Shown: positions 42,981-59,930 of the stretch, in pieces
Numbering within the stretch: position 1 is the stretch's first letter
How the letters are laid out: each line of letters opens with the position of its first letter
IMG/VR virus record: IMGVR_UViG_3300044729_002678
Span: 97,619-161,618 of that record
Direction: 5' to 3' (one strand)
Length of the DNA: 64,000 nucleotides
Source of the DNA: a virus
Program-made: the position numbers and the translations under genes
Notes under the pieces: generated by a model
Told to the model about the DNA's origin: nothing
The model's input: the letters and a program-made list of their open reading frames with translations, nothing else
Databases searched by the model: none

Positions 42981-45900
42981 AGGCTGACGATGAGTTCATA
43001 AATAAGGTAGTTAGTAGCAATTATTTTTTGCTACTGTTACACCAACAATGACCAGCGTGTGTTAAAGCAATTCCATCTCTAACATTACAGCTAATATATG
43101 TATGTCCTTTATATTCAAATTCGTTTAATTCTGTCACCCGTGTAAATATTCCGCTTTCAGTTCTTACTTCACCACCTTTTGATGTAGGTTTAGCTGTAAT
43201 GTTTTCGTCTTCGCAACCGCAAAAAACAACAGCTACTAACAGCAAATAAGCAAAAGCAAAGGTGCGGTGGTAAATTGATGTTCTCGTTTTCATATTATGT
43301 TCTGTTTTTAAGTTAAAGTTTTCGTTTCTAAATCTTTGCCTTAGCTTATCTGCGAACCGTTAGCGGAAATACCTTTTGTGCATCTCAACGCATCCACAGT
43401 TAATACAAGCGTGTAATTCCTGTTCAATCTCATCTTCACTCACAGAACTTGTAAGATTAGGAGAATTACACTCATTACATACCCATTCAAAATCTCGTTT
43501 AGGTACGCCTGTGCGATATATGTCTTTTGGGTCGTGTTGATGGTCAGGTAGTTTCATAGGTTTGGGTATTTTATGTCAGGTTATAGGCTGACGCTGGGGG
43601 GCTTTTGGTAAGAGCAGAGGCTGACGATTTGTTCACGAATGAGCGAGTTATCGGCAATTATGTGGCTTTCGGGTGTTCCCATTTTTCACGTCCGCATTTA
43701 CATTTTGTGGCTGATGAAGTTTTATTGTCCGCTTCAAAAAAGTCACATAACAGTCCGCTTCGCCCACTAACATCGGCTTGTAGCAATTCTTGGTTCAGTT
43801 CTTCGAGTAACTCTTGGAAATTAGTTTCTCCTGTTAATTGAAAGTTTATGCCACATTCAAATGCTCGTTTCATTTCATTGTATGAGTAATACATTTTCAT
43901 CTTCGTATCAAATTTAGTTGTTAATAATTCGCTTAAACGTAGGTTCGTGTTTCCGAATCCCAAATCTCAGTCCATTTGAAATACTTCCAGCTATCCCTCC
44001 ATCTAAGTTTAAACTTTTCTATGATTTTTGCTTCAAAACTTCTTGCCTCTTCCAAGGTGTCAAAGTCCTCCTGAAAATCATTCATCCTATCGGGATAATA
44101 GCAATCACCTGCAAATACTAAGAATCGTTTCATTATTGAGTGTTATTTGTGTTTGTATCCAACAGGCGATTTTTTTCTGCATTTAACCAGTCTTTAGCCG
44201 ACATACCGCTATTGGCAAAATTTTTTGAATTAAGCATATCCAATGCTATTTCAATTGCGTGTAATTGATACTTTTTATCAGCAATCAATCCATCTAAATA
44301 CTCATAAAAAGCCATTTGAGCCTCATACTCTGCTTCTGCTTGTGCAGCGCATCCTGCTTCGTATTCCCATTGTTCTTGTGTCATTTTATTTAGGTTTTAA
44401 GGTTTGGTTGGGTTCACGAATGAGCGAGTTAGGGGCAACCTACGGACGTACATCGTTCAACTTTTCGTAACACATTTTAATCACTCTTGCATCCCATAAT
44501 GCATTATGTTTTGGCATTTCATGATACACTTCACCACAGCCAAATTTTTCACGACTTACATCAGGGTCAATGGCTTTCATTTTAAACACCGTACAAATGT
44601 CAAAAGGTATGTAGTAAACGTTTTTTGGTATATTAAAAGCGTGTCCCCATATTTGAGAGAATAGCACCCAATCGTAAGAAAGACAATCACTCCACATTTC
44701 AACTTCTTCAAATTGCGAAAGCCATTTTTCTAAATAGATTTTTATTTCTTTCGTAGTTCCATAAACTAACATATCATTTGGTCTATCTTCTGTTACAATA
44801 CAATCGCTTACATCACCTTTAGGGTGGTTAAGTTTAGCAATCACGTTTTCTTTTAACCAATCATCCACTTGGGTAATTGCATAGTCTGTAAATTCAGCGT
44901 AAAATGTTTTGCCACATTCCGAAATAGCACCTAATGAAATTAGCGTTGTGCCTTGATGAAGCCCTGTGAACTCCGTGTCAAAGAAAATTTTTGTTTTTGA
45001 CATTTTATTTAGGTTTTAAGGTTTGGTTGGTCAGTTTATAGGCTGACGATTTGTTCACGAATGAGCGAGTTATAGTTAATTTAAAAGACTATCAATATCA
45101 GCCGTTGGTAGTGGCTTCAAATCGTAACTTTCATTTCTAATTCCGCTTGCTTCCAATCTATATAAGTTTCCGTCTTTGTCTTTCAATACTTTACCATCGT
45201 GTTCCCATTGGCAACCTTGAAAAACTATCGCTAACAACAAGACGGTAAAAGCAAGGGTTAATCGGTTAATTGAAAATTTCTGTTTCATGTGTATAGTTTT
45301 TAATTGTTTTCTTTATATGTTTTTTAAATGTGTATAGGTTTTGGGTAATTTGTGACAGGTTATAGGCTGACGATTTGTTGTAGGAAAACTTCACAAATAA
45401 GCGAGTTATGTGCCATTATGCTTTATTTCTTTTCCACAGTTGGTGCAATACCAATCAGTTAGGTTTTCCATCGGGAATGGTCTGCGTTTATCACAAACGC
45501 ACAACGTACCCTTCGGCAACATAACACCGTATAAAATCAATAGCTGCTTTCGCATTTCTATCAAGTCTATTTTTCCTAAGTGAAAGTTGTTCAATATTTC
45601 ATCTATTTTCTTATCCATACGCTACTGCTTTTATACGTGGAACGTTATAGGCTGACGCCGGGGGAGGTTTGGTAAGACCAGAGGCTGACGGTGGGTTCAC
45701 GAATGAGCGAGTTAGTGGTAATTATTATCAACCTCCCATTTATAAACCGCATTTTGATAATCATTATATTCAGATGAACTGCACCCTCTTGGGTCACTTG
45801 TATCATAAAAATCTTCTAATTGCGGTTTAGACTTCCCTTTATAACTACCGCTAACAAGCGGTTGGCTCAATTTCTCAAGTTCAGTTACATAATCAATTAA

Positions 45901-46091
45901 TTTGTAAAATTCATCAAGTGCCAACCCTTTTTGGTAGAAGTCAAGCTTGACGCCTCTCATCTGTGCTTTTAGGTTTTCAATTTTTGGTTTCATGGGTTTG
46001 GGGTTTGGTTGGTCAGCTTATAGGCTGACGCTGGGGGAGGTTTGGTAAGAGCGGAGGCTGACGATTTGTTCACGAATGAGCGAGTTAGGCG
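42981..46091. mobile_element. attC-like gene-cassette array I
   Basis: GTTA cores at 43010, 43359, 43647, 44428, 45069, 45405, 45644, 45711, 46084; full hairpins at 43235-43365 and 45520-45650. Confidence 0.7.
44440..45003 (-). CDS. DEDDh 3'-5' exoribonuclease (Rv2179c-like)
   Basis: FFDTEFTG...YDWV...HNALWDA. Confidence 0.85.
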
Positions 46092-57800: not shown

Positions 57801-59930
57801 GTTTAGTCCCAGCCACATATTCAGCCATTTCGGGTTCATTATTAAGAAACCAATTTATTCGGTTTATTTTTTGTTCTTGTGTTAATTCTATATTCATTTT
57901 TATTAAATTTATTTTGTTAAAAAAATAATACATACACATAACAAAGTGTATAAGTAATGTGGCTAATAAAGTTTATCTGTAAGTTATGTGTAATGTTACT
58001 CACCATTATACTTAAATTCAAACAACTTTGGTTTTAATGTATTACCAATTGGTTGAACGATTGATAAATCACTTGATGTTTCTCCGTGAATAACTTTCAT
58101 TAAACCAGGTATTCCATAATTCTCAAATGTTATTTCATACAAATCGCCAAAAAATGATGTATCATTATTACTAATTGTATGTGTTACTTCTATAACATAC
58201 TTTTTTGTAGTTATCAATGATTGTTGTAAATTAATAAACCAAAGTTGTGTTCCACTTGGTATCACATACTTATCTCCAATTTTTACTTTTTTCATATTTC
58301 ATTTCTTTAATTTTAACTTTTTAAAATTTGTGAGTTCATTACTCCATCAATATCCAAGAAAATAACTTTTTGCACAGGTTTTGGATTTAACTAATGGTTC
58401 TTTCAAAAACAATGAGATAACCTCCTCTTAGATGACTGCCACCACCTGTTGATATATGTCGTGCTGTTACAGATACAATCAACCAACCATCTTCCAAGAT
58501 TTTATCTATTTTGTCTTGAACATCTTTGTAAGATTCATCATCAGGAGTCACCAATACTTTTTGTTCTTTAAGTGCTATCATATTATTTTTAATTTAATCG
58601 TTCAAAGATATGACCTACAAACTCACCCCTCTGATACTGGTAGAGTATAAGTGGGTGTAAACTTCACAAATAAGCGAGTTAGCAGCAATGCTATGACTGC
58701 AAGCCAACACCATATCGTTTAAACCCATATTTCGTAAGTGTATAGTATTCTCCGTGTTCATTCACCCATTGATTAGGTCTTACTTCAATTAATCCTATTA
58801 GCCTTGCAAGTGCATCATATAAAGCACTGCTGCTAACATCGTATTGCTGAACATTGCCAGCTTCATCGGTAATTTCAACTTTTACTTTCATATCAATATT
58901 TATTTTTATTAAACATTTGTCTTTCAATTTAACTTAATACTACACAAATACAACATACTGGTAGCGTATAAGTGGGTGCAAACTTCACAAATAAGCGAGT
59001 TAGCAGCCATAATCAGAACAGACCGTTTCAAAGTCGTTCATAACAGCATCTAACAATTCCCATTTATCAGGATTACAACTTGTTGAACCTACCAGCAAAA
59101 ATTGAATTGCTATATCGTGTTCAGTTGTATGTTGACCTTTTTCGGCAAATCTTAATCTTTCTGATTTAAGTGCCTCAATCAATTTTTGTTTTCTTTCTTC
59201 GTTCATATTTTTAGTATTAAATTTTACAAAATTACGGCTGCTAACACACGTTTGGCGAAAGTGGCGGTTCAGTGCTCCGCAGACACATTTGTGGTTAATC
59301 AAACATTGGTTCTCCGCATCGGCTTTTGTGGTGAAAATCGCCACCTTCGCCGAGCGTGGGAACATTATGTGCAAGGCTACAATTCGTACTTTGAATAAAA
59401 GGCAACCTCACCATCATTTACCCATTGGTCAATTAAGTCGCTAACATCATTAATGTATTGTTCATTTTTACCTGCTAATTTAGTTGCTTTTAGATTTTCC
59501 CAAAATTCACCACTAAATTCATCCATATTATTCATGTAGTGAACAACAATTTCAAGTTTCTCTTTTAAGTTTTCCATTTCGTATTTAAATTAAATTTTGT
59601 GGTTAATGAAAAGTCAGTGCATTTAAGCCTCCACTGACAGCAAGCGGCAAAACGTTAGTGATAATAAAAATTAAATCAATCCTTGTTTCTTTAACATATT
59701 TACGATTGCCTTTGCTGCTGCCTTAACTGAATCAGGGTCTGTTTCCATATCACCCTCTTTCATAGAATAAGGCACATATCGTAAATATACTTCACTATCA
59801 ATTATATCTTTAATCATATCAATAAGTTCTTGCTCATTTTTACTATCACTAACATCAGATATATTCAAGTTTTCTTGATGTTCATTGAGACTTTGTATGT
59901 GTTTTAAATCTTTCATCTTCGTAAATTAGT
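54880..59930. mobile_element. attC-like gene-cassette array II
   Basis: Full hairpins at 55205-55337, 55919-55971, 56501-56592, 56791-56910, 57014-57331, 59240-59370; additional cores at 54898, 55613, 57735, 57983, 58678, 58999, 59654. Confidence 0.75.

Follow-up and report, generated by a model that had tools for sequence, protein, structure and literature searches.

Clusters of attC sites without an integrase (CALINs) are known in phages, including a Polaribacter phage, and some such sites recombine with IntI1 (Qi et al., 2023; PMC9892861). In class 1 integrons, the attI1 site contains a short open reading frame (ORF), termed ORF-11, that spans the crossover point, ends on the TAG of the core and helps the expression of cassettes that carry no start signals (PMC8876359). 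Among T4-type phages, early genes are shuffled by way of promoter-early stem-loop (PeSL) units (Arbiol et al., 2010; PMC2839356). Here we describe an arrangement that resembles each of these systems in part, found in a 64,000-nucleotide stretch of viral DNA (hereafter the window) that comprises the final 64 kb (positions 97,619 to 161,618) of the 161.6-kb virus record IMGVR_UViG_3300044729_002678. An early-looking region of small ORFs in this window holds arrays of coding modules that are bounded by two kinds of hairpin, termed L (leader) and R, and that meet at joints of the form TGTTA(G/T). Our full-text literature searches returned no description of start codons and leaders that lie in hairpins and are fused in frame to stem-closed cassettes.

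The modules share many characteristics with integron and CALIN cassettes. They are small, mostly promoterless, without annotated function, and arranged in arrays in which they are split by imperfect hairpins bounded by ...TAAC and GTTA... sequences. The start of each cassette is complementary to its own inverse core, the stems covary while the loops vary, and, as in CALINs, no integrase resides nearby. Unlike integrons, however, the phage arrays place the joint inside an ORF, where it is crossed in a fixed frame, and carry a start codon and leader in the hairpin loop. The complementarity of the cassette ends extends over 15-22 bp rather than 7. Moreover, the phage cassette travels with its upstream hairpin, both bases of which are breakpoints, and no IntI was found in the phage, whereas the integron unit is an ORF plus its downstream attC site. 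ORF-11 and ORF-18 of attI1 are also short ORFs with their own start signals that lie in a recombination site, cross the crossover point and aid expression (PMC8876359), but ORF-11 ends at the TAG of a GTTAG-type core and acts by translational coupling. In contrast, the frame across the phage core takes it as GTT AGN, which would fuse the leader to the cassette protein. ORF-11 is present at attI only, whereas a phage leader is present at every joint of an array.

The likeness to PeSLs lies in short conserved stem-loops that separate small, dispensable early genes in large virulent phages. Genes are shuffled, lost and gained there by recombination between the stem-loop copies, with no site-specific recombinase involved. 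In the window as well, many stem-loop units are found among small early genes, and gene gain, loss or replacement ends within these units. However, PeSLs are untranslated, intergenic promoter-terminator units that carry no start codons or leaders, and no separate stems close the genes that they flank. In-frame swapping of C-termini behind a constant N-terminus, at a short conserved DNA motif that is itself translated, is seen in the R64 shufflon (Rci/sfx), in the tail-fibre switches of Mu (Gin) and P1 (Cin), and in the CdiA-CT and Rhs toxin tips that follow VENN-type motifs. Each of those systems is confined to one gene, relies on either a dedicated invertase or long homology, and swaps C-termini with related functions, whereas the phage system places more than 100 unrelated small proteins behind a generic leader. 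Rickettsia palindromic elements are palindromic DNAs that are inserted in frame and translated, but these are repeated copies of one sequence, whereas the interior of each phage cassette is unique.

The window has a G+C content of ~33%, and every gene lies on the minus strand, which is therefore the sense strand for all modules named below (coordinates are those of the window). Along this strand, L and R hairpins alternate, and both kinds covary. We favor, with a probability of roughly 55%, the reading that the early region is a chain of self-folding L and R modules that are read in a fixed frame and exchanged at the bases of the hairpins, most likely via homology. This reading is built on two classes of covarying stem, on a frame that is fixed across the joint, on homology that breaks at the joint, and on modules that occur in many different pairings.

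Each L hairpin follows the same layout: xTAAC, 4-6 nucleotides, a stem of 13-21 bp that encloses a loop of 41-306 nucleotides, 1-2 nucleotides, and GTTAx. The stem was evaluated by using an alignment of 52 distinct leader units, in which 94% of the stem cells are paired, compared to 31-54% after the partner column is slid out of register. Two-sided changes occur in 38 cells versus 10.4 ± 2.6 after shuffling, and none of 500 shuffles gave a value as high. One stem pair is G.U in 50 of the 52 sequences, the TAAC and GTTA boxes are invariant in all 52 units, and no single extrahelical bases were identified in L stems. The peptide variants LHISD and LNISD track a matching change in the 5′ arm of the stem. 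The window holds seven L hairpins, two of which are short and carry no ORF. The other five have start codons in their loops (43293, 45618, 55303, 56862 and 57283), precisely those that had been placed in hairpin loops in an earlier examination of the letters alone (hereafter the sequence-only reading). Four leader copies are present in the window, and other contigs carry up to five joints each.

The R hairpins were missed in the sequence-only reading. The GTTA(G/T) of the joint opens an R stem of 15-27 bp whose partner is a (C/A)TAAC located at or just past the stop codon of the same ORF, 116-247 nucleotides away, and each R hairpin encloses the remainder of one ORF. The first codons of the cassette (GTT AGN NNN AGT) pair with the region of the stop codon (...ATT NNNN CTAAC). 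Most cassettes have their stop codon within the 3′ arm or use the TAA of xTAAC as the stop, and the length of the cassette places this TAA in frame in 36 of 59 cases. A scan of the whole genome recovered 12 R stems, compared to 0-3 in shuffled sequence, and 11 of these (ten of them clean) are located at 43-60 kb of the window. Across all fetched loci there are 144 distinct R stems, 135 of which carry a G.T wobble at stem position 11. Among four orthologues of one cassette (from the window and from loci L139, L145 and L146), stem positions 5-6 change on both arms, as evident by the combinations GT/AC, TG/CA and TA/TA. Apart from the fixed wobble, the non-Watson-Crick pairs on the sense strand are G.T in 38 cases and A.C in 14, which indicates that folding takes place in the mRNA, or in DNA with its polarity. 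The minimum-energy fold of nucleotides 56586-56908 consists of two neighbouring hairpins, L and R, that are one base apart (z = -7.3 as RNA and -4.8 as DNA). GTTA therefore pairs with the downstream TAAC, and not with the upstream one as drawn for attC sites.

ORFs that start in L loops run through the TGTTA(G/T) joint in one fixed frame. Motif matches were found in at least 120 stretches of metagenome contigs, and frame use was evaluated with the distinct leader-plus-cassette joints among the matches listed, which derive from viral, genome and metagenome contigs. The long open frame that follows the joint is the GTT frame in 132 of these 135 joints, as it is in all 21 joints of a first set, and the median open length after the joint is 56 codons in this frame versus 9 and 0 codons in the others. 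Joining in a fixed frame, as had been proposed from the sequence, is thus borne out. For 146 R cassettes, ORFs that enter from upstream split 78:13:0 by frame, whereas cassettes with the first in-frame ATG past the joint split 15:20:13, indicating that the frame is fixed only where the joint must be read through. The minor frame (G TTA G) corresponds to hydrophobic signal-peptide leaders, such as those at 43293 and 45288, and the joint at 43240 is read in a different frame (L-L-V) within a lipoprotein signal peptide. Within the 22 codons that precede the joint, only 2 stop codons occur in frame 0 compared to 86 and 247 in the other frames, and shuffled copies of these codons remain open in only 9.7% of trials. 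Leader lengths vary by whole codons and are mostly 19-23.

The same junction peptides recur because one frame runs from the 3′ arm of the L stem across the joint and into the conserved opening of the R stem (GTT AGN NNN AGT), and every junction peptide listed in the sequence-only reading is present. Approximately 60% of cassettes carry no start codon of their own, and about one-third have their first in-frame ATG downstream of the joint. Three cassettes in the window have their own ATG after the joint (56506, 55924 and probably 59245), and no such joints occur at 46.5-54.3 kb of the window. From these frame statistics, we infer that the joint is translated and that junction peptides are made.

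Homology between the window and other contigs, at the level of both protein and DNA, ends at the joints, where breakpoints had been predicted. ORF 45993 shares only residues 1-50 with ten contigs, and its joint corresponds to V47. Shared residues also end near the joint for ORF 56192 (residues 1-27), ORF 56862 (1-28) and ORF 59916 (1-25), and DNA matches end at 45847, 56781-56793, 56107-56123, 55055-55060 and 59841. The short L units at 56501-56590 and 55921-55969 are 92-100% conserved in 4-8 contigs, with matches that stop at both cores. Conserved stretches of 25-60 nucleotides, which are present in several copies per genome, end at the joints.

The proposed swapping of N- and C-terminal modules is likewise evident, as the same modules appear in many different pairings. 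The C-module of ORF 56862 is found behind at least five different leaders in the protein database, and its leader precedes four unrelated C-modules. The 133 C-modules that follow this leader type fall into 102 BLASTP families among the matches listed. In the window, comparison of repeats reveals three copies of a 93-nucleotide leader repeat (56113-56205, 55050-55142 and 56783-56875, all on the minus strand) and part of a fourth at 59845-59874. The claim that one N-module is joined to three unrelated C-termini therefore stands with regard to the three copies, while the C-termini, which have no Pfam or PHROG family match, are unrelated as judged by eye. When occurrences of the same cassette are compared, the upstream unit is the same and the downstream unit is different in six pairs, and the reverse is seen in none. 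Similarly, four orthologues of one cassette are followed by four different downstream hairpins. All cassettes have one orientation, and the G.T wobble is always on the sense strand.

ORF 55303-54899 (minus strand) crosses two joints, at 55210 and 55063, in agreement with the sequence-only reading. It lacks four elements that are found in contig L095 (the stop codon, the 3′ arm of the stem, the 5′ arm of the next hairpin and the ATG), and codon 2 of a LEQNL leader comes next, in frame. On the basis of this comparison, the ORF is a secondary fusion. Whole-gene insertions and deletions also occur between related contigs (loci L062-L138, relatives of the region at 43-46.5 kb), where they are flanked by direct repeats of 20-29 nucleotides. 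These repeats extend from an A/C-rich spacer upstream of the gene into its ATG and first codons (e.g. AAACCCCAAACCCATGAAAACC), so that recombination in these loci occurs at start codons as well.

The leader is a variable hydrophilic tag of ~21 codons, although it is sometimes a whole small domain and sometimes absent. Among 22 leaders of one subtype, codons 2-15 differ from the consensus by 65 nonsynonymous and 9 synonymous changes with no excess at third positions. The leaders keep their ATG, open frame, length and A-rich hydrophilic make-up, but the peptide is not conserved. A conserved targeting or cleavage peptide, similar to the capsid-targeting peptide of T4, was ruled out for this reason. 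In an AlphaFold2 model of an 87-residue ORF, which is of low confidence overall (mean pLDDT 60), residues 1-20 are disordered and a helix at residues 20-35 spans the joint. Residues just past the joint are invariant in orthologues of 55-83% identity, and for close orthologues codons 9-25 after the joint (located between the joint and the first internal Met) carry 4 synonymous and 0 nonsynonymous changes, which are small counts.

A portable translation-start adaptor for start-less cassettes fits the leader hairpin better than a functional domain does, given that the frame is kept and the peptide is not. The claim that the site itself supplies translation initiation is consistent with the ~60% of cassettes that are start-less, and also with a leader frame that stays open while its peptide drifts freely. 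The broader claim of combinatorial protein diversification fares less well, since most leaders look like interchangeable disordered tags. Whole domains do occupy the place of the leader in two ORFs, with 88 codons ahead of the joint at 57019 (ORF 57283) and 46 codons ahead of the joint at 45855 (ORF 45993).

In the reading that we prefer, start-less cassettes would be read from the leader ATG across the TGTTA(G/T) joint, and modules would be swapped at hairpin bases within and between related phages to give the many leader-cassette pairings. Exchange would most likely proceed by homology, microhomology or copy-choice recombination at the conserved joints and would be carried out by the RecA/UvsX-type machinery of the phage, which does carry a RecA/UvsX-like gene. 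The hairpins may act as sites of pausing or annealing, or may insulate each module at the RNA level. The data are compatible with copy-choice paused by hairpins, with a structure-specific enzyme and with a role at the RNA level.

Searches for other machinery were negative. The 161.6-kb record, which is 84% complete, gave no match to tyrosine recombinases (PF00589) at E ≤ 1, and controls were positive. Serine recombinase, Y1 transposase and reverse transcriptase (RVT_1) were not found in the phage, nor were genes for RNase III, endonuclease VII or GIY-YIG proteins. A scan of genome contigs returned only phage-like contigs, which had been binned into various metagenome-assembled genomes, and revealed neither an array in a host nor an integrase context. 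Several candidate mechanisms were dropped: a retron or reverse transcriptase given the lack of an RVT_1 match, single-strand transposition of the IS200/IS605 type given the lack of a Y1 transposase, and a serine invertase or shufflon given the lack of a resolvase and the single orientation of the cassettes. A hammerhead or other ribozyme was also dropped, since an Rfam search of 41.5-61.5 kb (E ≤ 1) gave only two tRNA-like matches and nothing for the hairpins. The sequence CUGAUG occurs in the 3′ arm without the rest of the hammerhead core.

Several observations weigh against the reading that we prefer. Homologous recombination alone leaves unexplained the pairing of the cassette ends, the fixed G.T wobble and the constant spacers (5 nucleotides versus 1-2 nucleotides), and this end pairing, wobble and constant geometry suggest a protein that recognises the folded strand. 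At the 3′ joint, only ~9-15 nucleotides are conserved between different units, which is little for exchange of the RecA type. Furthermore, a recombinase could be encoded in the part of the genome that is missing from the record or by the host. Finally, GTT ATG is the sequence at 12 of 52 joints, and internal ATGs lie in frame in many of the cassettes, such that some proteins may start at or after the joint. We view as tentative, and as clearly short of an even chance, the idea that large Bacteroidota-type phages possess a dedicated system for structure-guided gene assembly. In such a system, which would be a prokaryotic-virus analogue of exon shuffling distinct from integrons, protein genes would be built in frame from single-strand modules that fold on themselves (a leader hairpin with the start codon plus start-less coding hairpins), and an enzyme would recognise the hairpin base TGTTAG...CTAAC with its G.T wobble 11 bp in.

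The architecture of these arrays also invites the interpretation that they are a true integron-type system, which is how the sequence-only reading had viewed the sites. The xTAAC...GTTAx hairpins would then be attC sites recombined as folded strands with a G|TT crossover by an IntI protein from the host or from the missing part of the phage, and the in-frame leader would be a by-product that expresses promoterless cassettes. The invariance of the TAAC and GTTA boxes in all 52 units, the constant asymmetric spacer of the imperfect stem, and the complementarity of each cassette start to the inverse core of the same cassette, as in integron cassettes, are all in keeping with this idea, as are the precedents of integrase-less attC clusters in phages and of ORF-11. 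However, the phage has no PF00589 match, and the cassette keeps its upstream hairpin (six pairs versus none for the reverse), which is the opposite of an integron unit, with all four orthologues of one cassette followed by different hairpins. L hairpins are conserved as units that are cut at both cores, 7-mers such as CACTAAC and GTTAGTG match RYYYAAC/GTTRRRY at only 5 of 7 positions, and GTTA pairs with the downstream rather than the upstream TAAC in the linear array. Identification of the sites as attC is therefore not upheld, we think that the integron integrase is not involved, and we regard an integron-type system as unlikely. Somewhat less likely still is that the stems are purely RNA elements of early transcripts, with roles in stability, processing or insulation of start regions, and that the mosaicism reflects ordinary phage recombination that ends at conserved sequence without any dedicated mechanism. 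The excess of G.T over A.C on the sense strand, the stronger fold as RNA, the orientation of every module with transcription and the precedent of PeSL regulatory cassettes (PMC2839356) speak for such elements. Yet the hairpins match no Rfam family, no RNase III gene was found in the phage, and a 5′ arm that is coding means that every ribosome opens the stem. In addition, the turnover noted above (102 families for 133 modules), together with precise ends at both hairpin bases, suggests more than passive recombination.

The GTT ATG joints can be taken further, to the reading that read-through ORFs are not translated as such, that proteins start at internal ATGs or at GTTATG, and that the open frame upstream is a side effect of constraint on the hairpin. 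The third of cassettes whose first in-frame ATG lies past the joint would be consistent with this reading, as would two database proteins, of which P0009 begins at the joint and P0007 begins inside the leader. Nevertheless, the frame is fixed in nearly all listed joints (132 of 135), yet cassettes with a downstream ATG use all three frames evenly. Residues past the joint are invariant among diverged orthologues and change only synonymously in close ones, and the part of the leader that lies in the loop is unpaired yet free of stop codons. We therefore consider exclusive use of internal starts to be highly improbable, and return to the chain of L and R modules described above for the individual features of the window.

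The largest L unit (ATAAC...GTTAT, 57015-57329) has arms at approximately 57308-57320 and 57021-57033. Its hairpin, which extends from 57325 to 57019, holds ATG 57283 and 88 codons in the loop, close to the 90 or so originally estimated. The leader unit at 56792-56908 (ATAAC...GTTAG) has arms at 56881-56898 and 56798-56815 and carries ATG 56862, with the 22-codon leader MEEDKKLEQNLDKSNKKLHISD located within the loop and the 3′ arm. Of the two short units without an ORF, that at 56502-56590 (CTAAC...GTTAT) is followed by a gene whose own ATG is at 56478, and the whole unit is kept in 8 other contigs with both cores as the ends. The other (ATAAC...GTTAG, 55920-55969) is followed by ATG 55877. 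The remaining units hold ATG 55303 (CTAAC...GTTAG, 55206-55335), ATG 45618 (ATAAC...GTTAT, 45521-45648, with GTT ATG at the joint) and ATG 43293 (CTAAC...GTTAG, 43236-43363, with the joint in the other frame, inside the lipoprotein signal peptide). A separate site at 57916-57987 (minus strand) resembles an ‘empty’ joint, with the directly complementary cores ACACATAAC and GTTATGTGT separated by 40 nucleotides and no gene between. Its arm type, GTTATGTGTA / TACACATAAC, recurs at 56126, 55965 and 57325.

Stems of 15 bp close five of the R cassettes. These comprise 58999-59245, which holds ATG 59205 and has an ambiguous start because an in-frame ORF that begins at 59365 runs through the joint as well; 58678-58837, the C-terminal part of ORF 58891-58691; 55965-56126, the C-terminal part of ORF 56192-55977, with GTT ATG at the joint; 55331-55484, the C-terminal part of ORF 55526-55344; and 45711-45855, the C-terminal part of ORF 45993-45712, for which the ten matching contigs share only the N-terminal residues noted above. 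A 16-bp stem closes 55613-55808 (the C-terminal part of ORF 55877-55614), where the stop codon is the TAA of CTAAC, and an 18-bp stem closes 59654-59853 (the C-terminal part of ORF 59916-59671). The mini cassette at 56904-57019 (21 bp) encloses only the last 31 codons of ORF 57283-56924. The cassette at 56586-56796 has a 22-bp stem plus an inner stem, encloses the C-module GSFNRFEEFF... of ORF 56862-56599 and carries compensatory stem changes in its orthologues. Lastly, an imperfect stem of 27 bp closes 43010-43240, which forms the body of the lipoprotein ORF 43293-43021.

The phage collection contains neither a near-identical record nor a close isolate of this phage. One phage protein (33869-35425, minus strand) carries a type IX secretion C-terminal sorting domain (Por_Secre_tail), which points to a host among the Bacteroidota. 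Adenylosuccinate synthetase (20625-21653) and an Rv2179c-like 3′-5′ exoribonuclease (44440-45003) are also encoded, both on the minus strand. Ten small ORFs of the array region gave no family matches when compared to Pfam and PHROGs. Elsewhere, a 395-residue ORF (51749-52936, minus strand) includes three tandem units of ~83 residues, and motifs of the form ‘YENGNI...G..DG’ are repeated in, and common to, ORFs 47951-48403 and 49288-49656 (regions 47452-48403 and 49288-49656, minus strand). The window also carries 28 tRNA genes at 31-41 kb. Two tRNA-like sequences (51262-51369 and 41678-41763, minus strand) have intact acceptor and T arms, but inserts of 29-34 nucleotides replace the anticodon arm. 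These score 31.4 and 24.5 bits with the Rfam tRNA model and are not called by ARAGORN.

Two further repeat families are present. Ten copies of a 96-nucleotide repeat precede genes at 42778-42873, 46504-46599, 47097-47192, 49200-49295, 49929-50024, 50350-50445, 51650-51745, 53906-54001, 54182-54277 and 60099-60194. On the sense strand this repeat contains CTTG, about 20 nucleotides and TATCTTTA. Because this organization resembles a Bacteroidota-type promoter, the repeats are probably early promoters of the region between two cassette arrays, and they are elements separate from the L units. The second family, with the sequence TAACTCGCTCATTCGTGAA, occurs directly after xTAAC at gene ends, and in many cases one or two CGTCAGCCT boxes come next, together with a GTCAGC...GCTGAC hairpin. 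Boxes of 30 nucleotides from this family are located at 42991-43020, 43628, 44409, 45050, 45386, 45692, 46065, 55594, 57716, 58659 and 58980, and longer forms are located at 43561-43650, 45625-45714 and 45998-46087. A 19-nucleotide box of the family is present in 77 viral contigs, and these elements might function as a putative terminator or another kind of joint.

The early regions of phages abound in small genes without assigned function that show fast turnover, and the means by which phages gain, express and exchange these genes are poorly understood. For the arrays described here, a simple grammar predicts the exchangeable pieces, the joints and the frame, and it covers more than 100 unrelated small proteins and more than 130 joints among the matches listed. 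Gene callers will misplace the starts of such genes, and unrelated proteins will show false ‘homology’ through the leader that they share. Should a dedicated enzyme prove to recognise the hairpin bases, these phages would possess a recombination system that is new and stands alongside integrons. A leader hairpin that does act as a portable start would account for the immediate expression of start-less DNA in hosts that do not rely on Shine-Dalgarno sequences, and would constitute a natural expression adaptor for Bacteroidota.

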